64,000 nucleotides of DNA from Acetobacter sp. CAG:977. GTDB taxonomy: Bacteria; Pseudomonadota; Alphaproteobacteria; CAAGCB01; CAG-977. The stretch covers positions 564,588-628,587 of the forward strand of contig HF994935.1 in the NCBI GenBank assembly GCA_000434295.1, in the 5' to 3' direction. Under the pieces are notes generated by a model that was not told the origin of the DNA, searched no databases, and worked only from the letters and a program-made list of their open reading frames with translations. Positions 4,030 through 31,681 of this stretch are shown in pieces (position 1 is the first letter of the stretch; the number at the start of each line of letters is the position of its first letter). The translations under genes were made by a program, and so were the position numbers.

Positions 4030-5760
4030 ATGACGGTTAAACGTTTTTTTCTTCTTTGCCTGTTGGCTTTGTTCGGCGTTTGGATATGCCGCCCCTTTTG
4101 CGTGAACGAAGAAATTTTGTTTTCTTTTGACGCAAAGGTTTCGGCTAAAACGAAATTTGATGTTTTGGCTTTCGGAAAAAACGTCAGAGAGTTTGAAGCA
4201 AGCCGCAGCCTTGATCCCGATACGGCGTTTCGGACGATTTCTTATGTCGTGCCCGTACGCAAACTGACGGGAATTAATCTTTCAATAACGGGCAATGATA
4301 CTGATTTTGAAATAAAAAATGTGGTTTTGGACGGAAAAAACAAGCTGATTTTCCCGTCAAAAGATATCCGTGTTTTTTTTGAAAATATCGCCTCATATTC
4401 CGAGAACGGCGCGACGATATCAGGTCAAGCGAACAAAAATGCCGTCTTGCTGTTTTTCTTGAATAAAACGCAAAAAGGCAAAATTCATTTTGTTTTTCCT
4501 GCTTTTTTCACGTTGTCCGTTCTGTGGTTTCTGTTTTTTGACAGACTGCTTTCTTTTCTTTTAAGAAAGTTTCCGAAAATCAGTGAAACGCTTAAAAGCC
4601 ATCCGTATAAATCAGACTACGTGTTTTTGGCGATATTTTTTGCTTTTTTGATTTATCCTGTTTCGGATATAGATTTTTCATCGTCGGTCAGCCGTGAAAA
4701 CCGACGGCTGGCTCCTGCGGCGAAAATATTTTTAAACGGGCGGATAAACGTTTCTTTCGGTCGTCAGTTTGACGAATGGTTTAAAGACAGATTCGCCGGA
4801 AGAAATAAAATCATTGACCTGTATAATTCGTTTCAAAATACGTTCAATAAGCATTTTGAACGCCACGGCGTAATTATCGGCAAAAACGGTTGGATGTTTC
4901 ACGGGCGGCTTTCTAATTTCAAAGGGACGGATGCCTTTTCCGAAGCGGAATTACAAAAGATAAAAGATAATTTGATTCGCTTGCAGAATTTTTGCGACAA
5001 ACACGGAATAAAACTTTATATAGCCGTTTCTCCCTATAAACATCACATCTATCCAGAGTTCTATCCCGAAGAGGTTAAACGTCCAAACGATGTTGACCGA
5101 GAAGACAGATTGGAACAATTTTTGATTCGCGAGCTTCCCGATACGAAATTTGTTTATTTCAAGAAAGCTTTGTTGGACGAAAAAGAAAAAAGCAAAGACT
5201 GGCTTTATTTTAAGACGGATCATCATTGGACGGACAAAGGCGCATATACGGGGTATCGCGCTTTGATGGAGCTGATTGAAAAAGATTTTCCGTCCGTTAA
5301 GCCCGTGTCTCTTTCTGAATATGTGCGTACTACGGGGCGCAAAGTTCGCGCCGAATGCGACAGAAACTTTAATGAAGGGACGCAATATTTGTCATTGGCG
5401 TATCATGACGAAAGTCTTTTTGATTTGGATTATGTTTTTTATGACCATAAGCATTTGTCCGATTTGAAGATTGACGATCAGTGTAAAGCGCAAAGTTTTG
5501 CCCGTAATGACAAGGCGGCACCGTATAAAGTATTTTATATTACAGATTCTCAAGGCGAGAATTTTATGGAATTTTTGGGGCACACATTTAGAGACATTCA
5601 AAAACGGCGCTATAATGCAGAAATCAAAGAACGTCGGAAAAATGAAAATATTTATATGCCGTTTTATGAAAACGACATTCTGAAATACCGTCCCGATATT
5701 TTGATTTTGCAAGTTTACGACGCGTATGTACCGTCTTTGAAATCTTTGTACGAGGATTGA
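4030..5760 (+). CDS. AlgJ/AlgX-like SGNH-fold 'DHHW' protein with N-terminal membrane anchor (polysaccharide O-acyltransferase partner)
   Basis: Signature KTDHHWT motif, N-terminal TM helix, 576 aa; adjacent MBOAT gene. Confidence 0.6.
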   Translation: MTVKRFFLLCLLALFGVWICRPFCVNEEILFSFDAKVSAKTKFDVLAFGKNVREFEASRSLDPDTAFRTISYVVPVRKLTGINLSITGNDTDFEIKNVVLDGKNKLIFPSKDIRVFFENIASYSENGATISGQANKNAVLLFFLNKTQKGKIHFVFPAFFTLSVLWFLFFDRLLSFLLRKFPKISETLKSHPYKSDYVFLAIFFAFLIYPVSDIDFSSSVSRENRRLAPAAKIFLNGRINVSFGRQFDEWFKDRFAGRNKIIDLYNSFQNTFNKHFERHGVIIGKNGWMFHGRLSNFKGTDAFSEAELQKIKDNLIRLQNFCDKHGIKLYIAVSPYKHHIYPEFYPEEVKRPNDVDREDRLEQFLIRELPDTKFVYFKKALLDEKEKSKDWLYFKTDHHWTDKGAYTGYRALMELIEKDFPSVKPVSLSEYVRTTGRKVRAECDRNFNEGTQYLSLAYHDESLFDLDYVFYDHKHLSDLKIDDQCKAQSFARNDKAAPYKVFYITDSQGENFMEFLGHTFRDIQKRRYNAEIKERRKNENIYMPFYENDILKYRPDILILQVYDAYVPSLKSLYED

Positions 5761-5762
5761 TA

Positions 5763-7169
5763 ATGTTATTCAGTTCGCTGACGTTTTTGCATGTTTTTCT
5801 GCCGTCTGTTCTGGCGTTGTACTTTTTATCGCCGGTTCGGATGCGCAATTATGTTTTGCTGGTTGCCAGCATTATATTTTATGCTTGGGGCGAACCTCTT
5901 TATCTGGCAATGATGTTGTTCACCGTTATTGTCAATTATGTCGGTGCGTTGCTGATTGAAAAATCTCAGACTTCCGTTTTAAAGAAAACAGCTCTGTTCG
6001 GCACGATTTCGGTCGATTTGGGATTTTTGTTTTATTTTAAATATTTTAATTTCTTTCTTGAAAATCTGAACAAAATTGACTTTTTTGATTTTCCGTTCAT
6101 TGAAGTCATTATGCCGATAGGCATTTCATTTTATACGTTTCAGGCGCTTTCCTATCTGATTGACGTTTATCGGGGCGAAGTTGCAGCCCAGCATAATTTT
6201 TATAAGCTGGCTCTTTATATTTCATTGTTCCCTCAGCTGGTTGCGGGACCGATCGTTAAATATTATGACGTGTACGAAGAAATCAATTCCCGTAAGGAAA
6301 CTTTTGAACGTTTTATGTACGGCATTCGTCGCTTTGTGATGGGGTTGGCAAAAAAAGTACTGTTAGCCGATACGTTGGGTGCCGCCGTCGATACCATATA
6401 TGCTTTGCCTGTTTCTGAAATTTCGGTTTCTGCCGCATGGTTGGGCGCGATTGCGTATGCTCTTCAGCTTTACTTTGATTTTTCGGGATATTCCGATATG
6501 GCTATCGGATTGGGGCATATGTTCGGATTTAAGTTTTTGGAAAACTTTAATTATCCTTATTTGTCCAGATCTGTTTCCGAATTTTGGCGCCGATGGCATA
6601 TTTCGTTATCAACATGGTTCAAACAATATCTTTATATTCCTTTGGGGGGCAACCGCATATCCAAAGGGCGGACGTATATTAACCTGTTTATTGTTTTCCT
6701 GGTAACGGGATTTTGGCACGGGGCAAGCTGGTCTTTCATTATATGGGGGATGTGGAACGGCGTTTTGGTTTGTGCCGAACGTTTTTTCGGATTAAATAAA
6801 GATCCGTGCGGCAAATTAAGCTCTTTTTTAAGGCTGTGTTATGCCAATTTTGTGTTTTTGGCGGGTTGGGTTCTCTTTCGTTCGGATACCCTTACATACG
6901 CGTTTGATTATTTAAAGGTTATGTTCGGCATAATGCAAACAAGTCCTGATAATAACGGTGCTTTGTTCTATGCGGATAATTTGTTTACAGCGGCATTTGT
7001 CGTGGGAATACCGACGGCAATGGGCGCATTTGCAAAGATATGGGATTGGGCGTTAAAAACAAAGTTCAGAAATATGCTGTTTAACGTATGGTTGTTATTC
7101 CTGTACGGATTGACGTTTTTGTCTTTGGCAGGCTCAACATACAATCCGTTTATTTATTTCCGTTTTTAA
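5763..7169 (+). CDS. Membrane-bound O-acyltransferase (MBOAT; AlgI/DltB/PatA-like)
   Basis: Multi-pass hydrophobic protein with conserved MBOAT His region (..WRRWHISLS.., ..FWHGASW..); start taken at ATG 5763 just after upstream stop. Confidence 0.75.
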   Translation: MLFSSLTFLHVFLPSVLALYFLSPVRMRNYVLLVASIIFYAWGEPLYLAMMLFTVIVNYVGALLIEKSQTSVLKKTALFGTISVDLGFLFYFKYFNFFLENLNKIDFFDFPFIEVIMPIGISFYTFQALSYLIDVYRGEVAAQHNFYKLALYISLFPQLVAGPIVKYYDVYEEINSRKETFERFMYGIRRFVMGLAKKVLLADTLGAAVDTIYALPVSEISVSAAWLGAIAYALQLYFDFSGYSDMAIGLGHMFGFKFLENFNYPYLSRSVSEFWRRWHISLSTWFKQYLYIPLGGNRISKGRTYINLFIVFLVTGFWHGASWSFIIWGMWNGVLVCAERFFGLNKDPCGKLSSFLRLCYANFVFLAGWVLFRSDTLTYAFDYLKVMFGIMQTSPDNNGALFYADNLFTAAFVVGIPTAMGAFAKIWDWALKTKFRNMLFNVWLLFLYGLTFLSLAGSTYNPFIYFRF

Positions 7170-7969
7170 CGGCGTTTTTTAGTTTTTTTCCTTTTTGTTT
7201 TTGAGGCGGCTTTTTTCTTGGGTGTTGCCAGATAGCTTGTTTTTTTCTTTTTCGGAGCTTTGGACGCGCAAACGGTTTCTCCGTTTTCCAAAGACACCAT
7301 TTCTTCTCCGTACGGGCAGGTAAAGCAACCGCCGTCGGCTTTTCTGTACGGAGCGTTTTTGGGGCACGCCCGGCAAGCCCATTTCCCCGAAGCGTCTTTT
7401 TCAACATAAGGGCATAAAAAGTCGTTTGTCGCGGCTAATTTTTTGCAGGTTGCGATCTGTCTGGCGGCACTGTCGTCGTTCGGATAAGAAGTCTCACAAA
7501 CGTTTTTCAGCTTTACTTTGTTTTGAAAGGTTTCTTCTTTCGGGGGCGGAGGCAGTAAAGTCTTGTAATTTGCGCTGAGGCGTTTTGCGATAAGGGCGGC
7601 TTGTTCGTCGGAAACTTTTTCGCCGTCCGGTTTTCGTGCACTACCGTCGGTTACGGGATAATTGCTCAGGCACATGGGATAGCCGTCTTTTTTGACGATC
7701 AGCGTGCCTTCCGGACACAGGAAACAGCCTGCTTTGTCTTTGATGTCGTCAATCATATAGACGGATTTTCCGCGGCAAGACAGGCAAGCGCCGTATTTTT
7801 TTCCGGGATATTCGTGTTTTTTTCCCGTTTCGCACTTTTCCCTGCGCCGGTACAGAAAATTATAAATGACGGGTGCCGATACTTTCGGTACATACGAATA
7901 AGAATAAGCAGAAGCCTGATTTTCAATCAGAGCGGAAAAGCAAAAAACGGCAAGAATCAGCAACTTCAT
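7166..7969 (-). CDS. Cys-rich secreted protein with polybasic C-terminal tail
   Basis: Signal peptide, ~20 Cys in CxxC/CP pairs, C-terminus KKKKTSYLATPKKKAASKTKRKKTKKRR; start overlaps stop of upstream Sel1 gene (ATGA). Confidence 0.5.
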   Translation of the reverse strand: MKLLILAVFCFSALIENQASAYSYSYVPKVSAPVIYNFLYRRREKCETGKKHEYPGKKYGACLSCRGKSVYMIDDIKDKAGCFLCPEGTLIVKKDGYPMCLSNYPVTDGSARKPDGEKVSDEQAALIAKRLSANYKTLLPPPPKEETFQNKVKLKNVCETSYPNDDSAARQIATCKKLAATNDFLCPYVEKDASGKWACRACPKNAPYRKADGGCFTCPYGEEMVSLENGETVCASKAPKKKKTSYLATPKKKAASKTKRKKTKKRR

Positions 7970-9171
7970 TCTTTATCCTCCCGTTTTTCCTGCCACGGAA
8001 GATTCAAATCGCAAACGCCGGTCATTTCCGCGCCCAGACAAGCATTTTTATAGACGCTGATTTTAATAACGGCTTTTTGATGTAAGGCTCTGTTCAACAG
8101 GCGTTTGTTTTCTGGTGTTGTATAAAGAGTGATGCCGCAAGCCTCAAAAACCTGATCTCTTCCGTCCGTTCCTTGAGAAGAAACGCCGTCTCTGACATCA
8201 AAGGAACGGTAATAGTCGGGATGGAAAATTTTAACGGCATAAGTTTGAATTTTAGGATTTTTTCTTCCCGTGCCGAATAACAGTTCTTTGGGAGAGCAGT
8301 CTTCGGGTATGGCGATATCGCGAACCGATGTTTTTCCGACGGAAGGTTTTGAATTGCCGATAAAATCGTTCCAATCGTTCAAAGCTTCGTTTAATTGAGC
8401 TTGTTCCAAGATTTCTTTAGCGGCGGTTCTGTTTTTTTTGACGCCGTGTCCGTAAAACAGGCGCAAGGCTTTGATGAATTTATTGTCGCACTTTTTAAGC
8501 CAGTAAGAAGTATCTTTTGCGCTCGGTCGCATACCGATGCCGTAATAAGACATTTCGACCAAAGCGCATTGAGCGTCTTTGCTGGGTTTTTTAACGTCAT
8601 GAGCGGCGCGGCGCAACCATCTTAAAGCGCGTTCGGCGTTTGCGGGAACGCCTTTCCCTTCCAGATAGAGCCGTCCCAGTCTGTATTCCGCGACGGAATT
8701 TCCGGCTTTTGCGCCTTTTTGGTAAAAATCGAAAGCTTTGTCAAATTCGTTGCGCCTGTAATACAAACGTCCCAGTTCGTTGTGGCAAAAGAAGTTGTTT
8801 TCTTTGTCGGCACATTTTTGATACCACTTGACGCCTTCGTCAAAGTCTTCCTTGACGCCGTATCGTCCCGAAACGTAAGCAAATCCCAGCATGGAACAGG
8901 CACGCAAATATTCTGCGTTGCACAGCCTGACCAATTCGGGCAAAGCGGCATCCGTTTTTTTGGCGTAAAGGTCGGCTTCGGCTTTTCTGAAATCTTTTTT
9001 TTGTTGTTCTTCCGCTTTGATTTGTTCGGGAGTTTTTTTCTTAACTTTTTTTACCGGCTTTTTTTTTGCTTTTTTATACCTTCGCGTTGCGGCATAGGAC
9101 GGCTGAAAATTGCTGATGACGGCGCTGTCAAACAAGAATAATCCCAGAAAAACGCAAAGCCATAATCGCAT
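7966..9171 (-). CDS. Sel1/TPR-like repeat protein, secreted, with Lys-rich N-terminal segment
   Basis: Signal peptide; repeated ..G.GV..D...A..W..KAA..G. Sel1-like units (LGRLYLEGKGVPANAERALRWLRRAA etc.). Confidence 0.65.
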   Translation of the reverse strand: MRLWLCVFLGLFLFDSAVISNFQPSYAATRRYKKAKKKPVKKVKKKTPEQIKAEEQQKKDFRKAEADLYAKKTDAALPELVRLCNAEYLRACSMLGFAYVSGRYGVKEDFDEGVKWYQKCADKENNFFCHNELGRLYYRRNEFDKAFDFYQKGAKAGNSVAEYRLGRLYLEGKGVPANAERALRWLRRAAHDVKKPSKDAQCALVEMSYYGIGMRPSAKDTSYWLKKCDNKFIKALRLFYGHGVKKNRTAAKEILEQAQLNEALNDWNDFIGNSKPSVGKTSVRDIAIPEDCSPKELLFGTGRKNPKIQTYAVKIFHPDYYRSFDVRDGVSSQGTDGRDQVFEACGITLYTTPENKRLLNRALHQKAVIKISVYKNACLGAEMTGVCDLNLPWQEKREDKE

Positions 9172-9306
9172 CGTCCGACCTCTTTTTTTAATTTTATCAG
9201 ATTATACAAAATACTCGGAGACGCCTACAGTTTTTTTCAATCGGTTGACAGGAAAATCCAAAAGCTTTCTAATTATATAAAAGGTTGAACAAAGAAAGGG
9301 ACAAAG

Positions 9307-9831
9307 ATGAAAAAATATATAGCTCTGTTAGCCGGTATTTGCGTTCTTTCATCCTGCGCTTCGGCGCCGAAACCCGAACCTGCTTCTGCAAAATGCCCCC
9401 CTCCCGTCAAAAGGGAAGCAAAGTTCATTCCCGAACAATATGCTCCGTATGCGGGGCAGGGGACGGCAAAAATCAACGGACGCCTGTGCGTTAAAGATAC
9501 GGCGGGCAAAAAGAAATGTTTGGCAAATCAGCTGATCGTTGCGAACCCCGTTACGGATTATTCCACGGAATGGTTTGAACGCCATTGGTCAAAGGGCGTT
9601 TTTTTGGAACCGCCTCTGCCCGAAGCGCGCAAACACACCCGCACGGTCAAGACGGATGCTCAGGGGTATTTCAGTTTTACGGACTTAAAGCCCGGTTCTT
9701 ATTATGTCGGCGCGGTTGTCTGCCCGCCGTGCATCAAAGGCAAACAACCTTATAAGTACCAGCGTCTGGGTGCCAAAGTAACCATGAAAAAGTCGGTTAA
9801 AGCAGATTTAAAGCCGCTTTATACGCCTTAA
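9307..9831 (+). CDS. Lipoprotein, carboxypeptidase-regulatory-like beta-sandwich domain
   Basis: Lipobox LSSCAS; GYFSFTDLKPGSYYVGAVV motif; RBS AAGGGAC upstream. Confidence 0.5.
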   Translation: MKKYIALLAGICVLSSCASAPKPEPASAKCPPPVKREAKFIPEQYAPYAGQGTAKINGRLCVKDTAGKKKCLANQLIVANPVTDYSTEWFERHWSKGVFLEPPLPEARKHTRTVKTDAQGYFSFTDLKPGSYYVGAVVCPPCIKGKQPYKYQRLGAKVTMKKSVKADLKPLYTP

Positions 9832-9851
9832 AATACAGTATAAACAAACAA

Positions 9852-9882
9852 GGCGCCGTTTTTAAAAGACGGCGCTTTTTTT
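9852..9882 (+). terminator. Rho-independent terminator
   Basis: ggcgccgt..acggcgc hairpin + 7 T. Confidence 0.6.
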
Positions 9883-9944
9883 CGTTGGTAAAACCAACAG
9901 GAACAGGTATCCTGTAAGCCTTTGAAAAATAAAAGGAGGTTGTT

Positions 9945-11363
9945 TTGTCGTCTGCCCGCGAAAATATTTCAATGACCGAACCCGTCCGCAGGCTGTTTTG
10001 GAAGTACGTCCTTCCGACATTGGCGGCTGTTGTCATAAACGGGTTGTACGTTATGGTTGACGGTATTTTTATCGGCAGGTATATCGGGACGAACGGTTTG
10101 GCGGCAATTAACCTGATTTGGCCGTTGTTCGGCGTTCTTTTGGGGTTGGGCGGGATGATCGGCACGGCGGGTGCCGCATTGTGCTTGATTGAGAAAGGCA
10201 GGGGCGACTTTGAAAAAGCGCGCCGCTATGTCGGGAACAGCATCATTTTGCTGGTCGTGTCGGGCATATTTGTTTATTTCTTTTTGCATTATACCGCTTT
10301 GCCCGTGCTTAACCTGCAGATAAAAGACGCTCCGGACGTCCTTGCCAAAGGCATGGAATATGTTTCCGTGTTGCAGGTCGCCGGAGTTTTTACGGTATCG
10401 GCGACGGCTTTTCCTTTGTTAATTCGCAACGACGACCATCCGAATTTGGCTACAAAGCTGATGCTGGCAGGGGCGGTTTCCAATATTGTCGGAGACTGGT
10501 TGTTGGTTGCTCATTTAGAGTGGGGGATGAAAGGTGCTGCATTGGCAACGGTCGGGGCTCAAGGCGTTATTTCCTTGATTTCCTTAGGACATTTCTTTTC
10601 GCGCAGAGCGAACCTGCGCCTGAAACTTAACGATTTAAGGTTTTCTTTGCAAGCGACCGTAAAGACGTCCGTTTTGGGCTTTTCCAGCTTTTTTATGTAC
10701 GTTTATTTCAGTTTTTTGGGAGCCCTTTACAACTATGTTTTTGACAAATACGGCGGATCGGTTTCCGTCGCCGCTTATGCGTTGGTTGGGTATTATTCGG
10801 GACTGTATTATATGTTTTCCGAAGGGTTGTCTGCGGGTATTCAACCCATTGTCAGCTATAATTACGGCGCGGGAAAATATTATAACGTCAGGCGCGTGTT
10901 GCATATGGCGTTAAAAGTCGTGTTCATAAGTGCGGCCGTTTTTATGGCATTTATTTATATCTTTCCGGATTTTTGCATCGATTTGGTAAATTCTAAAGAT
11001 CCCGAACTGCATAAAGCATCCTTGACGGGGCTTCGTTTGCATTTGCTGACATGTTATTTGGAAGCGTTTATTTTGGTCGGCACGGTTTATTTTCAATCGG
11101 TGGACAATGCAAAGACGGCGACGGCGGTTTCATGCGTGAATTTGTTTATTCAGGTTCCGTTCGTTTTGTTGTTACCGTTAAAATGGGGGACAGAAGGGAT
11201 TTGGTTGGCGTATCCCGTTGCGAACGTTCCGCTGGCGTTGTTTGTTTTTATTGCGCTGACAAAGGACTTGCGCCGAAAGACAAAGCGTTTGAAAAAGAAA
11301 CATAAAGAAAAACTTTATGACCGGCTTTGCAAGCGCGACATGCTGAACGTGCAGCCGCAATAA
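9945..11363 (+). CDS. MATE family multidrug/oligosaccharide efflux transporter
   Basis: 472 aa, 12 predicted TM helices, MATE-like pattern; TTG start in track, in-frame ATG ~27 nt downstream is an alternative. Confidence 0.75.
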   Translation: MSSARENISMTEPVRRLFWKYVLPTLAAVVINGLYVMVDGIFIGRYIGTNGLAAINLIWPLFGVLLGLGGMIGTAGAALCLIEKGRGDFEKARRYVGNSIILLVVSGIFVYFFLHYTALPVLNLQIKDAPDVLAKGMEYVSVLQVAGVFTVSATAFPLLIRNDDHPNLATKLMLAGAVSNIVGDWLLVAHLEWGMKGAALATVGAQGVISLISLGHFFSRRANLRLKLNDLRFSLQATVKTSVLGFSSFFMYVYFSFLGALYNYVFDKYGGSVSVAAYALVGYYSGLYYMFSEGLSAGIQPIVSYNYGAGKYYNVRRVLHMALKVVFISAAVFMAFIYIFPDFCIDLVNSKDPELHKASLTGLRLHLLTCYLEAFILVGTVYFQSVDNAKTATAVSCVNLFIQVPFVLLLPLKWGTEGIWLAYPVANVPLALFVFIALTKDLRRKTKRLKKKHKEKLYDRLCKRDMLNVQPQ

Positions 11364-11930: not shown

Positions 11931-12125
11931 TTACTTTTTAGCGGCGGCTTTTTTAGCCGGAGCTTTTTTAGCGGGCTTTTCTTCGCACGCGCACTTGCAT
12001 TCGCCTTCTTTGCCGCCTTCCTGAACTTCGGCTTCCAGCCAGCAGTCGATTTCGACGCCTTCAGGGCAACCGTTGTTCAGCCAAATAAAGTAGGCTGCTT
12101 CGCGGACTTTATCTTCGTTTGACAT
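11931..12125 (-). CDS. Small DUF2934-like protein (acidic N-terminus, Cys cluster, KKAPAKKAAAKK tail)
   Basis: 64 aa ORF, good coding look, lysine/alanine-rich tail. Confidence 0.4.
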   Translation of the reverse strand: MSNEDKVREAAYFIWLNNGCPEGVEIDCWLEAEVQEGGKEGECKCACEEKPAKKAPAKKAAAKK

Positions 12126-13154: not shown

Positions 13155-15269
13155 ATGGGTCAGGAACGAAAAATAAAGCCGAAAAAAACGCCCGTCGTTT
13201 CGGGCAGCGACGTCAAAAATCTCAGCAAGCGCGGGTGGGTTTTGCGCGAACGCAAAAATCATCCGATGGATTATTCGTCCAGTTCTCCGATTACGATAGA
13301 AGCCGTTTCACCCGAGATCGATGCGGGACGCTACGCCGTCAAGCGCGAAGTCGGCGATACGATGGACGTCTATGCCAATATTTTTAAAGACGGCCATGAC
13401 TTGCTCAAAGCAGTCGTTATGTGCCGCAGGGCTGATTCTCAGGACTGGTGGGAAGTTCCCATGGTCGAACTGAATCCCGGCTTGTCGCGTTGGGGCGGAA
13501 CGCTTTATTTTAACGAAAACACCCGTTATATCTACACGATAGAGGCTTGGGTTGACGAATACGGGACATGGCTGGACGGGACGACAAAAAAACGTAATGC
13601 CGGACAAAACGTTGTTTTGGAATTGGTCGAAGGGGCAAATATCGTCCGCAAGGCTTTGGAACGTTTAGAAAGTATGACTGATGTGCGCGATCCCGCGGCA
13701 CAAAAGACGGATGCCGAATTGCTCAGAGACGTGTTGACCCGCTTTGATGCTTCCGAAGACGAATACGAATGTGCGAACCTTTTGATGTCCGAAGCCGTCG
13801 TGGCGGCGATGGACCGTTGGCCGGACAGGGAAAAGTCGTGCCGTTACGATCGCGAACTGGAAGTTTGGGTTGATCGCGAACGGGCTCGTTTCGGGGCTTG
13901 GTACGAGATGGACGCCCGTTCTCAGGGCAGTGTTCCCGGCGTTCACGGCACGTTCAAAGACTGTGAAGCGCGTCTTCCCGAAATTAAAGAAATGGGCTTT
14001 GACGTCGTTTATCTGATGCCGATTCATCCTATCGGCTATACTCACAGAAAAGGCAAAAACAACTCGTTGGTTGCCGAACCCGGAGATGTCGGCAGCCCGT
14101 ACGCCGTCGGCAGTAGCGAGGGCGGACACCGTTCCGTGCATCCTCAGTTGGGCACGATGGACGATTTCCGTTCTTTTGTACGCCGTGCACGCGAATTGGA
14201 AATGGAAGTCGCTTTGGATTTTGCCATTCAATGTTCTCCCGACCATCCGTGGATCAAGGAACATCCGGAATGGTTTGATTTCCGTCCCGACGGCACGATT
14301 AAATACGCGGAAAACCCGCCGAAGAAATATCAGGACATCGTGAACGTCGATTTTTATTGTGCGCAATCAGAATCGTTGTGGAAAGAACTGCGCGATACGT
14401 TTTTGTTTTGGGCAGACGAAGGAATACGCATTTTCCGCGTAGACAACCCGCATACGAAATCCGTTCCGTTTTGGGAATGGGTTATCCGCGAAGTCCAAAC
14501 AAAATATCCCGACACGATCTTTTTGGCAGAGGCGTTTACAAAACCGCCGATGATGAAGATGTTGGCAAAAGTCGGTTTTTCACAGTCGTACACTTACTTT
14601 ACCTGGCGCGAAAGCCGTGCGGATTTGGAAGCATACATGACCGAACTGACTCAGTCGGACATGAAAGAATACATGCGTCCGAATTTGTTTCCGACGACGC
14701 CGGATATTATGCCGTTTTATTTGCACGATGCTTCCAGAGCGTCGTTTATCATCCGTTTTATTTTAGCTGCGACGCTTTCTCCGTCGTACGGGATGCTGAA
14801 CGGTTACGAATTGTGCGAGAACGAAGGATTGTGGGGCAAAGAGGAATTTGATCATTCCGAAAAATACGAAATCAAAGTCCGCGATTGGAACAAAGAAGGC
14901 AACATCAAAGACCTGATTGCCAAGATTAACTGGATCCGCGGCGAGAATCGGGCTTTGCAACTATACGAAAACCTTCGTTTTTACGGTTCCGAAAATCCGA
15001 ACATCATGTTTTACGGCAAGATGACGGACGATCGTTCAAACATGATCTTTACGGCGATCAGTCTTGACCCGCATCAGGGGCAATCCGGCAGGATTTGGTT
15101 CCCGTCCGAAGATATGGGAGTGCCTCCCGGCGGTCGTTTTTGGGTTGAAGAGCTGTTAAGCGGTCGCCAATATGAAGTTCGCGGTTCGGAAATGTGGGTC
15201 AATCTGTATCCTGCGGGCAACCAAGCCGAGATATATCGCATTACGCCGATTGACCGCTTCGGGTATTAA
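13155..15269 (+). CDS. glgE: Alpha-1,4-glucan:maltose-1-phosphate maltosyltransferase
   Basis: 704 aa; N-terminal DAGRYAVKREVGD (GlgE N-domain), GH13 catalytic core (FRVDNPH, ..LAEAFT..). Confidence 0.8.
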   Translation: MGQERKIKPKKTPVVSGSDVKNLSKRGWVLRERKNHPMDYSSSSPITIEAVSPEIDAGRYAVKREVGDTMDVYANIFKDGHDLLKAVVMCRRADSQDWWEVPMVELNPGLSRWGGTLYFNENTRYIYTIEAWVDEYGTWLDGTTKKRNAGQNVVLELVEGANIVRKALERLESMTDVRDPAAQKTDAELLRDVLTRFDASEDEYECANLLMSEAVVAAMDRWPDREKSCRYDRELEVWVDRERARFGAWYEMDARSQGSVPGVHGTFKDCEARLPEIKEMGFDVVYLMPIHPIGYTHRKGKNNSLVAEPGDVGSPYAVGSSEGGHRSVHPQLGTMDDFRSFVRRARELEMEVALDFAIQCSPDHPWIKEHPEWFDFRPDGTIKYAENPPKKYQDIVNVDFYCAQSESLWKELRDTFLFWADEGIRIFRVDNPHTKSVPFWEWVIREVQTKYPDTIFLAEAFTKPPMMKMLAKVGFSQSYTYFTWRESRADLEAYMTELTQSDMKEYMRPNLFPTTPDIMPFYLHDASRASFIIRFILAATLSPSYGMLNGYELCENEGLWGKEEFDHSEKYEIKVRDWNKEGNIKDLIAKINWIRGENRALQLYENLRFYGSENPNIMFYGKMTDDRSNMIFTAISLDPHQGQSGRIWFPSEDMGVPPGGRFWVEELLSGRQYEVRGSEMWVNLYPAGNQAEIYRITPIDRFGY

Positions 15270-15382
15270 GAAGGTACGGCGCACTAAAAAGTGATGAAAC
15301 ACACAAAAAACAGTTTCTTATTTTTAACGGGTGCGCCATACTATGAAATCTTTAGTTCCGACGAACGTTTGAGGGAAAGCTG

Positions 15383-16975
15383 ATGGTATCAGGTTTGAAA
15401 GCGGGAGAGATTATCCTTGTAGATTCGGACAAACTCTCCAAGTTGTTTGAAAGCGAGCTTTTTAAGGAAGCCTTATGCTCGCATATGCCCCATTTTTTAC
15501 CGTCGAAAAGATGGTACGGAGCAAAAGATGATGTTATCAATTCCGTAATGATTGAAAACGTATTTTCGCTGAATGATGAGGAAGATACGTTCTTTTTGAT
15601 TGTGCGCGTGTCGTTGCAGGAAGCGGAGAAACAGTTTTATTCTATTCCCGTTCGTTTGGCGTGGGAGGACGGCGCAAAGAAGATTTTTGAAGCCCAGCCT
15701 CAGTCGGTGATTGCGACGGTATGTTACGGGACAAAGCTCGGCATTGTTTATGATGCGGTCGGATCGAAAGATTTTGCGACGGCGATTTTGTCTTTGATGT
15801 GCAAAGATTCCGAAACGGATGTCGGTGACGGAGCTTTTTTGGCGGCTTCGGCGACAAAGGCGGGTAAAGAACTGATTAAATCGGTAGAGGGCGCGTCTCA
15901 AAAGCTGTTGGGCGTTGAACAAAGCAACAGCTCGATTGTCGTTGGCAAAAAGATAATATTAAAGATGTATCGTCGCGTTGCCGTGGGCAATCATCCCGAA
16001 ATTGCGACGACGAGCTTTTTAACCGAAGAAGCCGGATTTAAAAACACGCCGGCGTACTTGGGCGACATTGAATTGAAGTTGAAGGCCGGTCGTCCGATGG
16101 CATTGGGCATTTTGCAGGCGTTCGTACCGAATCAGGGCGACGGTTGGAACTATACGATGGATTACCTGAAGAAGTTTTTTGCCGATGCTTTGGATAAAAA
16201 GGCGGGGGGAGACTATCACGCTGATTATTTAAAGATGGTGGAAACTTTGGGCAAGCGCACGGCGGAAATGCATAAGGCTTTTGCCAAAGGTAAGGACGCC
16301 GTTTTTGCGCCCGTTCCCGTGGAAGCGGGAGATTTGGAATCCTGGACGGAACAGGTTTTGGCTCAGGCGGAAAAAACGTACGGCGTTATGAAGAACGGCT
16401 TGGGCAACCTGAGCGGCGAAATAAAGGAAAATACGGAAAACCTTTTAGCTCATTGGTCCGTTTTAACCGACAGGATTAAAGCGCTTGTTCCCGAAAACGT
16501 CAAAGCGATGAAGACGCGTTTTCACGGCGACTATCATTTGGGACAGGTTGTTGTCGCGGACAAAGACTTTTATATTCTGGATTTTGAAGGGGAGCCGTTG
16601 CGCCCTCTGATGGAACGGCAAATCAAACACACGGTGTTGAAAGACGTGGCGGGCATGGTTCGTTCGTTTGATTATGCGGCGTTCGGAGCCGTATTGATGT
16701 TTGTCGTTCCGGAACACCGGGCGATTATCACGCCGCTGGTTTCGGATTGGCAGGAACGTGCGACATCGGCATTTTTGAAGGGGTATTTCGACAATATGCA
16801 AGGATGTCCGTCTTTGCCGGATAATAAACAGACGACACAGGATATCCTGGACTTGTTTGTTTTGGAAAAAGCGCTGTACGAAGTTATATATGAAGTGGCA
16901 AACCGTCCCGATTGGGTGGCTATTCCTTTAAACGGTATGCTGAGATTGATAGACCTTAACGGAGAACGCAAGTAA
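15383..16975 (+). CDS. mak: Maltokinase (maltose 1-kinase), stand-alone, with ~80 aa N-terminal extension
   Basis: Aminoglycoside-phosphotransferase-like [11 protein letters not shown] and DFEGEP motifs; position between glgE and glgB. Confidence 0.65.
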
Positions 16976-19185
16976 TGAAAAACTATTTGGATCAAGGAAT
17001 TGTCGAGGCTCTGGTATCTTCGGGTTACGGAGACCCGTTCTCCATATTGGGGATGCATCGCGGAGACGTTGACGGTGCGCTGTTAATCAGGACGTTTCAG
17101 CCTCAGGCTCAAAACGTCTACATATTGGAATACGACACAGGCAAAGTTATTGCTCAGATGGAAAAAATCCACAGTGCGGGACTGTTTCAATACGAGTTTG
17201 GCGAAGACGTCAAAGACTTTTTTAAATACCGTTTGCGCATAGATTTGTGGAACGGCGGTTCGTATGATACGGAAGACGCCTACCGTTTCGGTCCCGTTTT
17301 GGGGGATATGGATATTTATTTCTTGTCCGAAGGGACGCATCTTGACGAATATCACCGTTTGGGGGCGCATCCGATTGTTTTGGACGGCGTTTCCGGTGTC
17401 AGTTTTGCGGTATGGGCGCCGAATGCGCGCCGCGTCAGCGTTGTCGGCACGTTTAACGAATGGGACGGTCGCCGCCATTTGATGCGTCCGCGCGGGTCTT
17501 CCGGCGTTTGGGAGTTGTTTATTCCGCATATTGCCGCAGGCGTTATGTATAAATACGAATTAATGGGACCCGAAGGAAATCTGTTGCCCTTGAAAGCCGA
17601 TCCGTTTGCATTTTATGCGGAAAAACGCCCGTCAACGGCTTCGGTCGTGTACGATCTTGATAAGTATGAATGGAAAACAAAGGGCTGGGAAAAGAAACGC
17701 GGCGCCGTTAACGATATGGGGGCTCCGATTTCGATTTATGAAGTCCATTTAGGGTCTTGGCGCCGCAATCCCGACGAAGGGATGCGTTATTTGACGTATA
17801 AGGAAATGGCAAAAGAGCTTGTCGATTACGTCAAAGACATGGGCTTTACGCACGTTGAATTTTTGCCGGTCAGCGAACATCCGTTTGACGGGTCTTGGGG
17901 GTATCAGACGACGGGGCTTTATGCGCCGACCAGCCGTTTCGGCACGCCCGATGAATTCCGTGAATTGGTAGACGCTTTGCACGGTGCGGGCATCGGCGTT
18001 TTGATTGACTGGGTTCCCGGACATTTCCCCAAGGATTCTTTCGGATTAGCCAATTTTGACGGTACGGCGCTGTATGAACATGCCGATCCGCGCCGCGGCG
18101 AACATAAAGATTGGGGAACGAAGATTTACAATTACGGACGCCGCGAAGTCAATAACTTCTTGGTTTCCAATGCGTTGTTCTGGAACAAGGAATATCAAAT
18201 CGACGGATTGCGCGTTGATGCGGTTGCTTCGATGCTGTATTTGGATTACAGCCGCAAGCCGGGAGAGTGGATACCCAATGAATTCGGCGGACACGAAGAT
18301 TTGGAAGCCGTTGCCTTCCTGCGCCGCGTAAACGAGCTTGTCTATGAAAACGCGCCCGGTGCGGCGACGTTTGCCGAAGAATCGACGGCATGGCCGATGG
18401 TTTCCCGTCCGACATACATGGGCGGCTTGGGCTTCGGTTATAAGTGGAACATGGGCTGGATGCACGATACGTTGGAATATATGAGCAAAGATCCGATCTA
18501 TCGCCGCTACCACCACAACAAAATGACGTTCGGCATGATTTATGCCTTTAACGAAAACTTTGTTTTGCCGTTGTCTCACGACGAAGTCGTTCACGGCAAA
18601 GGGTCTTTGTTGAACAAGATGTCGGGCGACCGTTGGCAGAAATTTGCAAACCTTCGCGCGTACTACGGCTTTATGTACGGACATCCCGGCAAGAAACTGT
18701 TGTTTATGGGCAACGAATTTGCCCAAGACCGCGAATGGGATTGCGACAGCTCTTTGGGGTGGCATTTGTTGAACGATCCGATGCACAGAGGCGTTCAAAA
18801 TGCGGTGCGCGATCTGAACAAAGTTTATCGGGAAACGCCTGCGCTGTATCAGCACGATTTTGATTCGTCGGGTTTTGAATGGATTGACGCGGATAATGCG
18901 GACGAAAGCGTGTTCAGCTTTATTCGCCGCGGCGACAATCCGAACGATTTCGCCGTTGTGATCAGCAACTTTACGCCGGTTCCGCGCGAAAACTTCCGCG
19001 TCGGCGTACCGCACGGGGGCAAGTATGTTGAAATATTCAACTCGGATGCGGAAATTTACGGCGGCAGCGGCATGGGCAATCCGAACGGAGTGGAAGCTTC
19101 GGAAGAAGGGTGGAACTTCCGTCCGAATTCGATTTTTGTTACGTTGCCGCCTTTGGCGACAATTATATTGGTGCCGCAGGGCTAA
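16975..19185 (+). CDS. glgB: 1,4-alpha-glucan branching enzyme
   Basis: 736 aa GH13_9; [22 protein letters not shown], ..FMGNEFAQ.. motifs. Confidence 0.92.
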
Positions 19186-19209
19186 AGCTGAATTCGGAGT
19201 TTTGCCCTG

Positions 19210-21546: not shown

Positions 21547-21562
21547 TGCAAAGGGGAAAACA

Positions 21563-23820: not shown

Positions 23821-24426
23821 TTAAACGTTTTCGACGTATCTGGCGGCAATAAAGTTCCAATTTGCCAGATTATCCAGAAAAGCCTGAGCAAAATCGGGGC
23901 GACGGTTCTGGTAATCCAGATAATAAGCGTGTTCCCAGACGTCCAAGGTCATCAAAGCGATTTGTCCGTGAGCAATCGGAGTATCGGCATTTGAAGTTTT
24001 TGTAATTTTCAGTTCCCCGTTTTCCAAAACCAGCCAAGCCCATCCGCTGCCGAATTGAGAGATTGCGGCGGCTTTAAATTCTTCTTTAAATTTTTCTTCG
24101 CTGCCGAAAGTTTTGACGACGGCATTTTTAAAGGAACCTTCGGGCAAAGCACCGCCGCCGTTCGGGGTCAGACAGCTCCAAAAGAACGTGTGGTTCCATG
24201 TTTGAGCAGCATTGTTAAAGATTCCCGCTTTTGAAGCATCGCCGGCGGTTGCACGGATAATGTCTTCCAAGCTTTTTGCGGATAAATCGGTGTCTTTGAT
24301 CAGGTTGTTTAAGTTTGTAACGTATGTGCGATGGTGCTTTCCGTGGTGAAATTCCAGCGTACGGGCGGACATATAGGGTTCAAGGGCGTCGCCGCCGAAC
24401 GGCAGGTTAGGCAATTCAAAAGCCAT
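23821..24426 (-). CDS. sodB: Fe/Mn superoxide dismutase
   Basis: HHGKHHRTYVTNLN and DVWEHAYY signatures; 201 aa. Confidence 0.93.
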   Translation of the reverse strand: MAFELPNLPFGGDALEPYMSARTLEFHHGKHHRTYVTNLNNLIKDTDLSAKSLEDIIRATAGDASKAGIFNNAAQTWNHTFFWSCLTPNGGGALPEGSFKNAVVKTFGSEEKFKEEFKAAAISQFGSGWAWLVLENGELKITKTSNADTPIAHGQIALMTLDVWEHAYYLDYQNRRPDFAQAFLDNLANWNFIAARYVENV

Positions 24427-24498: not shown

Positions 24499-25590
24499 TC
24501 AGTCAATGTACGCGGCGGCGCGGAAGCCCGACCGTACGGCGCCTTCAATGGTGCAGGGCAGCCCCGTGTCGGTCGAATCGCCGGCCAAAAAGACTTGATC
24601 GGAGCCGATGTTTGCGGGCGGACGCAAAGCGTTGACGACTTTGCTTTGGTGCAAAGTTGCCCGTTTTGACGCGATAAAACGGTAAGGGGGCAGTCGGTGT
24701 CCTTCCGACAAAGCGCCTTGTATGTCGTGCCATACGGTTCCCGCGATGGTTTCGGGGCGCCGTTTTTTCAGCAAATCGTCCGCGGCGCTGATCGTGACCG
24801 ACAAGATGCCGTTTTGTTTAAAAGCCCAATGCCCGACAGAATGCGTCAGTCCGATAAAAAACCTGTTTTCGGGCAGTTGTGAATCAGTTTTGTAATGAAT
24901 GCCGACAATCGTGTTGCAAGGCTGTTCCGCCGCGCCGACGACCAGTCGGCTCAGATTTTCGGAGGGCAGGGCAAGGATGACTTTGTCTTTTTCGGGAATG
25001 ATTTTATCTTCGTCGGCAAAGCAAAGCATATTTTCGCGTATTCGAACCAGCTTTTTATGAAAAAGGAACGCAACGCCCCGCCGTTTTAATTCGTTTTCTA
25101 CGGGGTCGATAATGCAAGCTTTTAAAGACGGCACCGCCAAATACGCTTGTCCGTTCTTTTTGCCCAAGCATTTAAGCCCCGTTTTCATCAGCATCCGAAA
25201 ATCGACCTGACCGTACGGCGTATTCATGACGGATTCCGCAAACAGAGGATAGAGTTCTTTTATGTGTCCGAAAAAAGACAAGGGACGTCGCGGGTCAACG
25301 CAAAAAGTTTCTTTTGTTTTGGCATTAAAGAATAAAAAATCGTGTTCAACGGGGACAAGCGGCGTTGACGTGGGGCATTTTTCCAACATATCCAACAACG
25401 CCGTGTTAGATCCCAACATCAAATGCGTTCCGGCATCAATAACGCAACCCAACCGTTCGTCATAAAAAGAATGACACCGTCCTCCCGAACGGTCGGAAGC
25501 GTCATAGACAACGACTGGAATATGTCTTTGGCTCAGCGCAAAAGCGGCAGACAATCCGGCGATACCCGCTCCGACAATATGAACCGTCAT
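24499..25590 (-). CDS. hpnE: Squalene-associated FAD-dependent desaturase / hydroxysqualene dehydroxylase
   Basis: N-terminal Rossmann VHIVGAGIAGLSAA; amine-oxidase fold; downstream of two squalene-synthase-family genes. Confidence 0.7.
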   Translation of the reverse strand: MTVHIVGAGIAGLSAAFALSQRHIPVVVYDASDRSGGRCHSFYDERLGCVIDAGTHLMLGSNTALLDMLEKCPTSTPLVPVEHDFLFFNAKTKETFCVDPRRPLSFFGHIKELYPLFAESVMNTPYGQVDFRMLMKTGLKCLGKKNGQAYLAVPSLKACIIDPVENELKRRGVAFLFHKKLVRIRENMLCFADEDKIIPEKDKVILALPSENLSRLVVGAAEQPCNTIVGIHYKTDSQLPENRFFIGLTHSVGHWAFKQNGILSVTISAADDLLKKRRPETIAGTVWHDIQGALSEGHRLPPYRFIASKRATLHQSKVVNALRPPANIGSDQVFLAGDSTDTGLPCTIEGAVRSGFRAAAYID

Positions 25591-25593
25591 TTT

Positions 25594-29229: not shown

Positions 29230-31681
29230 GAAACATTTATTACCCATTGTTTTAACGACATTTTTTGTGTCTGTGGCAATCGCGGCGGTCGAACCGAACG
29301 CCGTGATCGTCTATTTTCTGCCCGTGCAGGATACCGCTTCCGTCGATTCGCCTCATGCGTCAAAATACGTCCCGACCAAAACAGGCGTCGTCATCGCAAA
29401 AACGACTGACAATCTGCCCGAAAAAAGCAAAATCGACGAAAAACACGGCATTAAAACGCCCGTCGGCGTTTCTTTGTACGATAAGGGCGAAACGCCGTTG
29501 GCAACGGCTCAGGAAAACGTGCTTGCTCCCGTCAAGGTCATGATTTTGCCGCCCGAAGACTTGGTTAAAAAAGATCGCAAAGCCGTTAAAGGAACTCCCG
29601 ACAGCGTCGTTCCGTTACCGATCCGCATTTTCCCTTTGCTCGACTTGAAAAAGGAAGTCGAAACCGTCGAACAAAAGGAAGAAGACAAGCCTTTGTTCCC
29701 CGAAGCCGTCAAGGTTGCCGCCAAAGAAAAAGACGACGACGGCGATCCCCGTCCGTATCTTGAATCGGAATGGCCGGCTTGGATTTTCCGCCAGCTCAAG
29801 ACGTGCGAAGGGTCTCAAAAGGCCTTTGTCCTGGCGACTCTGTATCGCATGATGGGCGATAAAAAGCCGTTGGGAAAAACAGATTGCGAAATAAAGCGCG
29901 AAGTCGCGAAATTCCTTCAAAAATGCTATCCGTGGCCTGCCGACTACTATACGCCGGACAAGTTTGATTATCCGCCCGAAAACATTCAAATCGTCCGTAT
30001 GGCTATTGAAGTCTTGTCTTCGCGTTTCGAAGGAACAAAGTTTTGTCCGCTGGATTTGACTCACATTAATTTCGAAAAGAACGATTTTATCCGCACGCAT
30101 TTTGACGAAGCCGATTTTTCGTATTCCAATTTTAACGAAGCATCTTTTCTGAACGCCCAAATGCAAAACTCGATTTTTCAAAAAGCGGAAATGGATAATG
30201 TTTTAATTCAGGAAAGCTCTTTTGAAAAAGCCTATATGAAAGGCGTTCGCATGCGTTTCGGACACATTATCGATTCCGATGTCAGCATGGCGTTTTTCCA
30301 ACAGGCGGATTTGACGAATACACAATTCAGACGTTCCAAAGCCGTTTTGTCAGATTTTTCTCAGGCAAAGCTGGCAAACACCGCGTGGGAAGACGTTGAA
30401 GGCGTTCAAATTGATTTCAGCGATTCCGATTTAACCAAAGCCGTTTTTAACAACGTTCTGTTTGAAAAAATGGAAGCCAACGGCACCGATTTTTCGAATC
30501 TGGTTTGCCGTGATTGCCAGCTTCAAGGGGCGGAAGCGCAGGATGCTTGGTTTTATCAGGGGCAATTCAATACGGTTTCTTTTAAAAATGCGGATTTGTC
30601 GGGCGCCAATTTTTCAAAAACCGTTTTCGAACCGCCGATTGTTTTAAGCGGAGTGAAAATTTACGACACGGATTTTAAAGGTGCGGATATTCGCTTCTTT
30701 GAAGGATTGACGGCGGAACAGCTTCGCCTGACGCTTATTGATGCCGACACGCAGTTGCCCAAACCGCCCGAAGACTTTGAATCGGCGTCTTATGATGTTG
30801 ATATTTTCCGCGACACGTATGAAGAAAAAGGCGAAATAGCCTACGGTTGCACTCAAAAAATGTGTGAAGACCGCCTGAAGGGCAGAGTGTCGAATACGAA
30901 TCTGGCATTAAGGGCGATGTCTTTTATTGATGCGCCGAATACGTCTTTTGACGAAAAAATGTGGGCGTTGTGCACGATGGGATGTATTGCCCGGTATGAT
31001 AAAAAGCTTGAACCGTCTCAAATTGATATTTTGGCGGCATTCGTGCGCCGCAATTCAAAATGGAGCTCGGAAGACTTGTTTAAGCCGTACACACCGCTTA
31101 AACCCGAAGTTCAAACGGCTTTGTTTATTTTGACGGATCCAGCGGCGGGAATATATCCGTCGTATGACATTGATCTGTCCGGAACCGACTTGCGCGGGGC
31201 TGATTTGTCAAATTCGGATTTGCGTGCCTTTACGTTCAGAGGGGCAAATCTGAGCGGAGCCAATTTGTCGGGTTCAATTGTTGACGATGCGTTCAACCGT
31301 TTTGACCGTGCCGTTGTCGACCAGTTTACGGTTTTGCCAAAAAATGTCAGCCGTTTCATGCCTTATCAGCTGCCCGAAGAACTTGTTTGGCCGCGTTGGT
31401 GGAAACCGGGTACGGTCAGGGTGATCAAAGATACGGTCAATTTATGGTACCCGATTACCGAAACGATACCGTTCTCGGATGATTTTATCGTTCGTCCGAT
31501 AGGATTAAGCGCTTCGAACGAAACGAAAGATCAAAAAGCCGCAGAGCCGGCTCAAACAACGGAAAAAGCTTCGGCTGAAACAAAAGAAGGCGCAAAAACC
31601 GAATCAAAAGGGGAAAAATCAGAACCGCAACAAGGAACGAAAGAAAAGGATAATAAGGAAGGGGAAGGGAAAAATGAATAA
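29201..31681 (+). CDS. Large membrane-anchored pentapeptide-repeat protein (826 aa) with Pro-rich linker and K/E-rich tail
   Basis: TM helix then two blocks of A(D/N)LxG-type pentapeptide repeats (ADLTNTQFRRSKAVLSDFSQAKLANTAW.., GTDLRGADLSNSDLRAFTFRGANLSGANLSG); overlaps rhodanese stop by 29 nt. Confidence 0.7.
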   Translation: MKEMLINRIKKHLLPIVLTTFFVSVAIAAVEPNAVIVYFLPVQDTASVDSPHASKYVPTKTGVVIAKTTDNLPEKSKIDEKHGIKTPVGVSLYDKGETPLATAQENVLAPVKVMILPPEDLVKKDRKAVKGTPDSVVPLPIRIFPLLDLKKEVETVEQKEEDKPLFPEAVKVAAKEKDDDGDPRPYLESEWPAWIFRQLKTCEGSQKAFVLATLYRMMGDKKPLGKTDCEIKREVAKFLQKCYPWPADYYTPDKFDYPPENIQIVRMAIEVLSSRFEGTKFCPLDLTHINFEKNDFIRTHFDEADFSYSNFNEASFLNAQMQNSIFQKAEMDNVLIQESSFEKAYMKGVRMRFGHIIDSDVSMAFFQQADLTNTQFRRSKAVLSDFSQAKLANTAWEDVEGVQIDFSDSDLTKAVFNNVLFEKMEANGTDFSNLVCRDCQLQGAEAQDAWFYQGQFNTVSFKNADLSGANFSKTVFEPPIVLSGVKIYDTDFKGADIRFFEGLTAEQLRLTLIDADTQLPKPPEDFESASYDVDIFRDTYEEKGEIAYGCTQKMCEDRLKGRVSNTNLALRAMSFIDAPNTSFDEKMWALCTMGCIARYDKKLEPSQIDILAAFVRRNSKWSSEDLFKPYTPLKPEVQTALFILTDPAAGIYPSYDIDLSGTDLRGADLSNSDLRAFTFRGANLSGANLSGSIVDDAFNRFDRAVVDQFTVLPKNVSRFMPYQLPEELVWPRWWKPGTVRVIKDTVNLWYPITETIPFSDDFIVRPIGLSASNETKDQKAAEPAQTTEKASAETKEGAKTESKGEKSEPQQGTKEKDNKEGEGKNE

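Follow-up and report, generated by a model that had tools for sequence, protein, structure and literature searches.

Sel1-like repeat (SLR) proteins are alpha/alpha repeat solenoids, and the grooves of SLR and tetratricopeptide repeat (TPR) proteins serve as peptide- and protein-binding modules. Several solved members consist of repeats only, e.g., EsiB/c5321 (4bwr), LpnE (6deh) and the Sel1 proteins of Oxalobacter formigenes (6ok3, 6ork, 6onw, 6ur7), and in HcpB and HcpC of Helicobacter (PDB 1klx, 1ouv) cysteine pairs are bridged in each repeat. Intra-repeat disulfides are an unusual trait that is common to the Hcps and COA7 (PMC8892353), an SLR protein with disulfides that resides in the intermembrane space of mitochondria (PDB 7mqz). 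In the periplasm, AlgK and MotX serve as SLR scaffolds on which partner proteins are held. Disordered, polycationic C-terminal tails rich in lysine, alanine and proline (K/A/P-rich) are found in the mycobacterial proteins HBHA and Hlp, where they bind heparan sulfate (PMC3293801, PMC2409343). Here we analysed a stretch of 64,000 nucleotides (the window; contig HF994935.1, positions 564,588 to 628,587 of the forward strand) from Acetobacter sp. CAG:977, an uncultured human-gut alphaproteobacterium, in which two overlapping open reading frames (ORFs) on the minus strand encode an SLR protein (gene 1, protein 1) and a cysteine-rich protein (gene 2, protein 2). Genes 1 and 2 are a real, clade-specific operon that is co-inherited wherever either gene occurs and in which an SLR scaffold is coupled to a novel partner.

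We scanned for gene 2 with one genome per GTDB species and recovered it from 27 species-level genomes, i.e., metagenome-assembled genomes (MAGs) of uncultured Alphaproteobacteria from the human gut, the rumen and horse faeces. One contig deposited as Limosilactobacillus gorillae (L019; CAVCSV010000004.1) contains the alphaproteobacterial pair together with its usual neighbours, and probably stems from a mislabelled or contaminated bin. A first-pass annotation of the window had proposed a coupled pair. With 49 homologs sharing 43-96% identity, gene 2 is a genuine coding ORF. Comparing the loci with the window proteins by tblastn showed an ortholog of gene 1 immediately upstream of gene 2, in the same orientation, at each of the 33. 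The ATGA overlap between the Sel1 stop and the next start was confirmed at 7969-7966: on the reverse strand, gene 1 ends with GAT AAA GAA TGA and gene 2 begins in the other frame with ATG AAG TTG. All 26 loci in which both ORFs could be parsed show an overlap of either 4 bp (ATGA) or 1 bp (TGATG/TAATG). When the search started from three gene 1 orthologs, the downstream gene was in each case (3/3) a protein of 285-292 residues without Pfam match, joined by a 4-bp overlap. Upstream of the operon, the candidate extended -10 element TGTATAAT is kept in the window's two closest relatives (L007 and L008); because a -35 match is absent, it was not called in a consensus promoter scan.

The two families also diverge together, pairwise divergences of proteins 1 and 2 being strongly correlated over 25 non-redundant loci (r=0.93); the partial correlation given the neighbouring SpoU methylase (r=0.71) is above that of the other gene pairs tested, which is supportive but not independent evidence. 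A profile search with protein 2 against 1.84 billion cluster representatives returned only five clusters, made up of members of the family, fragments and a single fusion, and no distant homologs beyond the family; five clusters among so many representatives indicate that the gene 2 family is confined to this gut clade. The fusion (P0130, corresponding to L032:6837-8348; 503 residues) comes from contig JAKSVT010000027.1 of the horse-faeces MAG Horse_feces366 and combines a complete gene 1 ortholog with the second cysteine module and the basic tail of protein 2, the sole gene 2 parts kept, behind one canonical signal peptide. The existence of such a natural fusion supports a shared compartment and function of the two proteins.

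Protein 1 has the solenoid fold of SLR proteins and matches Pfam Sel1 (PF08238) with E=1.2e-20 (73.6 bits, cutoff 30.7). In its AlphaFold2 (AF2) model the helical repeats extend over residues 48-270 with a per-residue confidence (pLDDT) mostly above 90, followed by a disordered linker. About 43 full-length orthologs were found at 50-99% identity, and below them similarity falls abruptly to generic Sel1 matches. Both products of the operon start with N-termini that resemble cleavable signal peptides, with hydrophobic runs and AxA motifs, as the first-pass annotation had read them; in the orthologs of protein 1 an uncharged hydrophobic run of median 13 residues (9-19) precedes an AxA-like motif, and a lipobox is missing from protein 1. 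The lysine-rich segment that follows is present as it had been quoted (KKAKKKPVKKVKKKTPEQIKAEEQQKK, residues 33-59); the model has pLDDT <50 for residues 20-42, and in orthologs the segment is variable (median 7 lysines plus arginines, K+R) and missing in two. What the first-pass annotation overlooked is that the Sel1 protein bears cysteines of its own, ten in the mature protein, nine of them invariant and one nearly invariant. The pairs C84-x7-C92 and C120-x8-C129 are conserved and stand immediately ahead of the xxLGxxY motif, as they do in Hcp proteins, although such a pair is not present in every repeat. Since a second exported Sel1 protein in the window (31674..32720) has no cysteines at all, those of protein 1 are family-specific. 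The highly conserved C-terminal domain is modelled as four strands, a helix and two strands (AF2 strands within residues 310-389), and gave no Pfam match, no PDB sequence match and no homologs beyond the family.

Compared with the systems outlined above, protein 1 is about 21% identical to HcpB and HcpC, which does not imply orthology. It has close cysteine pairs in two repeats only, whereas pairs bridged per repeat are the Hcp feature; its C-terminal beta domain, lysine-rich N-segment and acidic tail also set it apart from HcpB/HcpC, as does its obligate partner encoded downstream. Hcp family members would be repeat-only and orthologous to Helicobacter Hcp; protein 1 is neither, and its full-length orthologs are confined to gut Alphaproteobacteria. 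EsiB, LpnE and the Oxalobacter Sel1 proteins lack both a C-terminal domain and a coupled cysteine-rich partner, and resemble protein 1 only at profile positions 53-215. The likeness to COA7 is at fold level only, COA7 being metazoan, heme-binding and without a partner gene. Matches to AlgK and MotX are weak: the NCBIfam scores reach 27.1 bits against a cutoff of 700 for AlgK, whose identity is further contradicted by the missing lipobox and a non-conserved alg-type neighbourhood, and 18.9 bits against a cutoff of 330 for MotX. An identity as LapB was likewise rejected, in view of the short hydrophobic run followed by AxA, a C-terminal domain free of CxxC and the lack of an NCBIfam LapB match. 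Because the tested defining features of Hcp, AlgK, MotX and LapB are not found in it, protein 1 is placed in the SLR superfamily but outside these four families.

Protein 2 contains 15 cysteines (one in the signal peptide, 14 in the mature protein) and not about 20 as had been stated, and none of the 14 mature ones varies among 26 aligned homologs. The hydrophobic run of its N-terminus has a median of 11 residues, and the predicted mature start is a conserved A-Y-x-Y-S-Y-x-P-K (A|YxYSYxPK). The AF2 model (mean pLDDT 82.6, pTM 0.48) shows two confident beta-rich modules (residues 24-112 and 185-234) separated by two helices, and disorder from residue 243 onwards; blocks such as NDFLCPYV and CF(T/N)CPYGEE are likewise invariant in the alignment. 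The two modules share the pattern C-x2-C-P...C-F-x-C-P-x-G...C, and aligning the two halves of the family alignment with hhalign gave a probability of 90% (E=1.6e-6), which identifies them as duplicates and resolves the 14 cysteines into 6+2+6. No Pfam or NCBIfam family was matched above threshold by protein 2, although one homolog bears a precomputed PF07562/NCD3G tag. Family members do show recurrent likeness below the gathering scores to NCD3G (26/26), Ephrin_rec_like (9/26) and TNFR_ELAPOR1 (6/26). With these TNFR/ephrin-receptor-like/NCD3G repeats (PF07699, PF07562, PF23091) protein 2 has in common the C-x2-C-P-x-G motif and beta-hairpin-rich cysteine modules; it is not a member of them, given the absence of any Pfam match above gathering and of any structural match to TNFR or ephrin receptors in the PDB.

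The polybasic tail of protein 2 is present as the first-pass annotation had described it (KKKKTSYLATPKKKAASKTKRKKTKKRR), and its composition is conserved throughout the family (median 43% K+R, net charge +11.5, median length 29.5 residues), while its sequence is not, the tail being A/P-rich in many orthologs. Its length varies between 5 and 49 residues in the 26-sequence alignment and reaches about 60 residues in ORFs of the loci. The products of the two genes have the two highest net charges over 25 residues (+13 and +12) among 64 non-overlapping ORFs of the window. The tails of HBHA and Hlp are similar in being C-terminal, disordered, K/A/P-rich and polycationic, but the likeness is purely compositional, the proteins are not homologous and their folded domains differ. 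For protein 2, as for the C-terminal domain of protein 1, no described counterpart was found. The pair as such had been called an undescribed module, in agreement with which nothing matched it in Pfam, NCBIfam, the PDB or PADLOC, and literature searches for Sel1 with cysteine-rich or lysine-rich terms, RF32 and CAG-977 did not find it.

We propose, with a probability of roughly 45%, that the operon encodes an exported two-protein complex, anchored to an anionic polymer through tails that are polycationic and disordered. Translational coupling would keep the two products at a fixed ratio, and both would be exported by their putative Sec signal peptides, as the hydrophobic runs and AxA motifs suggest. 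Protein 1 may then act as an Hcp-like Sel1-repeat scaffold, probably stabilised by disulfides and equipped with its family-specific C-terminal beta domain. Protein 2, with its cysteines presumably engaged in disulfides, would form a rigid body of two duplicated six-cysteine modules, which the Sel1 scaffold most likely binds or chaperones, so that the two would constitute one complex outside the cytoplasm. Protein 2 through its C-terminal tail and protein 1 through its N-segment could tether this complex electrostatically, either to the cell envelope (lipopolysaccharide, LPS; peptidoglycan; anionic lipids) or to a polymer of the gut environment. Binding of the tails to LPS, DNA or polyphosphate, as suggested by the first-pass annotation, would be reasonable in view of their charge; polyphosphate or DNA would be odd ligands of Sec-exported proteins. 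Envelope components would be the default ligand for periplasmic proteins, and host sulfated glycans might serve as a more novel ligand by analogy to HBHA/Hlp.

Several observations weigh against this proposal. The genes for SpoU, QueH and a lipoprotein are conserved neighbours of the pair as well, and since synteny is generally high in the clade, the adjacency of genes 1 and 2 is weaker evidence than it appears. The fusion is known from one MAG contig. Protein 1 has lysines within two to four residues of its predicted cleavage site, and in E. coli lysines so placed disfavour export by Sec. The basic tail is missing in L030 and P0049 and the basic N-segment in P0057 and P0069, and with some orthologs lacking one or the other, neither segment is indispensable.

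Part of the same evidence might be read differently. Protein 2 might leave the cell as a host- or mucus-directed adhesin or effector that binds sulfated or sialylated host glycans, with its TNFR/ephrin-receptor-type cysteine repeats and its HBHA-like Lys/Ala/Pro tail as binding parts and the Sel1 protein as chaperone or co-adhesin. The restriction of the family to gut and rumen MAGs and the recurrent sub-threshold NCD3G, Ephrin_rec_like and TNFR_ELAPOR1 likeness are consistent with this, as are the K/A/P-rich tails of several orthologs, which are of the heparan-sulfate-binding kind known from HBHA/Hlp (PMC3293801, PMC2409343), and the fact that the nearest solved SLR proteins (HcpC, LpnE, EsiB and the Oxalobacter SLRs) are host-interaction factors. 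However, a route across the outer membrane is not evident, the locus is a core syntenic one among housekeeping genes, unlike those of typical variable effectors, and the Pfam matches all remain below gathering without a TNFR or ephrin-receptor structural match in the PDB. We therefore regard this reading as unlikely, and would say the same of its specific form, in which protein 2 would adopt a new fold, rich in disulfides and with CxxCPxG repeats resembling those of eukaryotes, presented at the surface by its Sel1 partner and attached by its tail to host mucin or heparan-sulfate glycans. It is also doubtful that the CxxC...CxxC pairs of protein 2 bind zinc or another metal in a zinc-ribbon or treble-clef-like manner, which would make it a metal-binding or thiol-redox protein. 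Such a function would be plausible for a gut anaerobe with its weakly oxidising envelope, and both modules show the classical Cys4 spacing (C62-x2-C65-x16-C82-x2-C85 and C199-x2-C202-x12-C215-x2-C218), in addition to weak matches to zf-Tbcl_FmdE (19.4 bits, cutoff 23.2; 7/26 members), zf-Di19 and a PHD finger in the PDB (E=0.27). All of the zinc-finger matches are, however, sub-threshold, the stronger recurrent matches are to disulfide-bonded extracellular modules, and export by a signal peptide together with 6+2+6 invariant cysteines fits an all-disulfide scheme equally well.

The net charge of protein 1 after its hydrophobic segment is far above that before it, which under the positive-inside rule would suit an arrangement like that of LapB: an uncleaved N-terminal anchor with the lysine-rich flank and the repeats in the cytoplasm, where protein 1 would work with a CxxC metal-binding partner as the TPRs of LapB do with its rubredoxin. 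Weak PDB sequence matches to the TPRs of LapB (E about 0.002-0.004) point in the same direction. We nevertheless consider this very unlikely, because the hydrophobic runs are short and followed by AxA motifs, protein 1 has ten conserved cysteines, protein 2 carries a canonical signal peptide without a positive flank, the fusion also begins with a canonical signal peptide, and the LapB model is not among the NCBIfam matches. Hardly credible is a bacteriocin-like pair of a cationic toxin (protein 2) and a periplasmic Sel1-repeat immunity protein, comparable to the SLR immunity proteins of the type VI secretion system (T6SS) effector Tle5/PldB (PA5086-5088), since the locus is core and vertically inherited with synteny kept in every species, and no mobility or secretion-system genes are found nearby. 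The adjacent phospholipase effector or T6SS genes that such immunity proteins require are lacking, the likeness to PA5086 is generic for SLR proteins, and neither the gene order nor the fusion of both proteins in one genome suits a toxin/antitoxin logic. PADLOC gave no match to anti-phage defence for either protein, and a phage or defence origin was also rejected on the grounds that the PHROG match is to a generic Sel1 protein of unknown function. That two unrelated exported proteins are adjacent through regional synteny alone has very little to recommend it: the conserved SpoU, QueH and lipoprotein neighbours would fit, but neighbours change while the pair stays overlapped, both families have the same restricted distribution, the distances of proteins 1 and 2 correlate more closely with each other than with those of neighbours, and the fusion exists.

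Gut Alphaproteobacteria of the CAG-977 type and related bacteria, which are uncultured, occur widely in humans, ruminants and horses; to our knowledge, almost nothing has been learnt of their envelope or host interface. The operon is among the few clade-specific, strictly conserved pairs of predicted exported proteins that can be defined for this lineage, and two of its domains have no detectable relatives: the one at the C-terminus of the Sel1 protein and the duplicated cysteine module. If the pair forms a complex that resides at the surface or binds the host, it could provide a handle on colonisation by the lineage or a means for its detection and enrichment; as a glycan-binding surface pair, it would be a clade-defining colonisation factor of prevalent human and animal gut Alphaproteobacteria, and as an envelope tether, a new kind of electrostatic envelope component based on disordered tails. 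The immediate value is modest, namely a well-delimited new protein family pair that does not answer an open question. The features of the locus are listed in Table 1.

Table 1. Features of the two-gene operon (window coordinates; aa, amino acid residues of the respective protein).
Feature	Position	Strand	Basis or remark
Gene 1: predicted exported Sel1-like-repeat (SLR) protein, 401 aa	7966..9171	-	ORF; Pfam Sel1; exact match CCZ22943.1
Gene 2: predicted exported Cys-rich protein, 267 aa	7166..7969	-	ORF; exact match CCZ22942.1, annotated 'unknown'
ATGA stop/start overlap of genes 1 and 2 (translational coupling)	7966..7969	-	read from sequence
Shine-Dalgarno-like GGGAGGA for gene 2, within the 3' end of gene 1	7976..7982	-	6 nt before ATG
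Candidate extended -10 promoter element TGTATAAT for the operon	9201..9208	-	read from sequence; 30 nt before ATG
Protein 1, signal-peptide-like N-terminus (aa 1-28, ...PSYAA|T)	9088..9171	-	read from sequence
Protein 1, Lys-rich disordered segment (aa 29-59)	8995..9087	-	13 K+R
Protein 1, Sel1-like helical repeats (aa 61-270; conserved Cys 84/92, 120/129, 202/228)	8362..8991	-	
Protein 1, C-terminal beta-rich domain (aa 284-393; Cys 292, 345, 378, 387)	7993..8322	-	AF2
Protein 1, acidic C-terminal tail (QEKREDKE)	7969..7992	-	orthologs acidic, median net charge -4
Protein 2, signal-peptide-like N-terminus (aa 1-21, ...NQASA|YSYSY)	7907..7969	-	sequence and alignment
Protein 2, Cys module 1 (aa 22-112; C46, C62-x2-C65, C82-x2-C85-P-x-G, C100)	7634..7906	-	beta-rich, pLDDT >90
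Protein 2, two-helix linker (aa 113-183; C158, C175 invariant)	7421..7633	-	AF2 helices 121-130, 166-181
Protein 2, Cys module 2 (aa 184-236; NDFLCPYV, C199-x2-C202-P, C215-F-x-C218-P-Y-G-E-E, C234-A-S)	7262..7420	-	best-conserved block of the family
Protein 2, polybasic disordered tail (aa 237-267; 17 K+R of 31, no acidic residues)	7169..7261	-	pLDDT <50

The pair lies in a core chromosomal region with housekeeping genes on its flanks. In the window, gene 2 converges on an MBOAT ORF (5757..7169, plus strand) with which it overlaps by 4 bp, both stop codons lying within TTAA 7166-7169, as the first-pass annotation had observed. Its remark that no terminator separates the two is correct but trivial, there being no intergenic space; a weak 5-bp hairpin (CCGTT-TTT-AACGG, 7160-7172) spans both convergent stops. 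A link between the MBOAT gene and the pair did not hold up: gene 2 is separated from the SpoU methylase gene by AlgX/DHHW-like and MBOAT genes only in the window and in L007 and L008 (2/33 related loci). At most other loci the convergent neighbour of gene 2 is the SpoU gene itself, a place taken by OEP genes in one subclade. Given this variation in the flanks of gene 2, the MBOAT overlap is incidental, and the locus comparison identifies the MBOAT/AlgX-like genes as a recent insertion and not as conserved partners. The two genes (4030-7169, plus strand) encode an AlgX/DHHW-like SGNH protein (576 residues) and an MBOAT/DltB-like acyltransferase (470 residues), overlap by 4 bp, and by their sequences look like a glycan O-acylation module. 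The possibility that they and an AlgK-like Sel1 protein together make up a module for O-acetylation, of the alginate or PatA/B kind, was rejected because of their confinement to these three loci and the AlgK score far below cutoff.

Flank turnover around the intact, overlapped pair further involves RmuC and a restriction-modification pair, besides the MBOAT/AlgX insertion and the OEP genes. The restriction-modification pair (an MT-A70 methyltransferase and a BglII-type endonuclease, L034:721-2018) was inserted near the locus, showing that the flanks are plastic while the pair remains intact. In L032 the fusion gene is followed by an OmpR-type response regulator and a histidine kinase (8444-10822), for which reason we considered an ExoR-like periplasmic regulator of a ChvG/ChvI-type two-component system; the regulator/kinase pair is missing from all other loci and from the window, and this candidate was rejected. 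Divergent from the operon, the window encodes a lipoprotein of 174 residues (9307-9831, plus strand; lipobox LSSC) that matches phrog_14789 (E=3.6e-18) and shows weak prealbumin- and CarboxypepD_reg-like matches. Its gene adjoins the pair or lies within about 2.5 kb of it in about 20 related loci, and the intergenic region between it and the operon contains the invariant block AATTAGAAAACTTTT and, on the strand of the lipoprotein gene, a TTGACA.

Elsewhere in the window, the cysteine-free Sel1 protein mentioned above (348 residues, predicted to be exported) is encoded on the plus strand with an 8-bp overlap behind a pentapeptide-repeat protein of 826 residues (29201-31681), and the two genes (29201-32720) represent a second coupled pair involving a Sel1 protein. 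A DUF2934 protein of 64 residues (11931-12125, minus strand) has a CxCxC stretch and a K/A/P-rich, HBHA/H1-like tail (EEKPAKKAPAKKAAAKK). A contiguous alpha-glucan cluster (13155-23767, plus strand) comprises GlgE, a maltokinase-like protein, GlgB, a CBM48/alpha-amylase debranching-type enzyme and MalQ. On the minus strand, a squalene/phytoene synthase gene adjoins a flavin amine-oxidase-type gene (24499-26622), which suggests hopanoid or carotenoid-type isoprenoid synthesis, and a Fe/Mn superoxide dismutase is encoded at 23821-24426, a notable enzyme for a presumed gut anaerobe.

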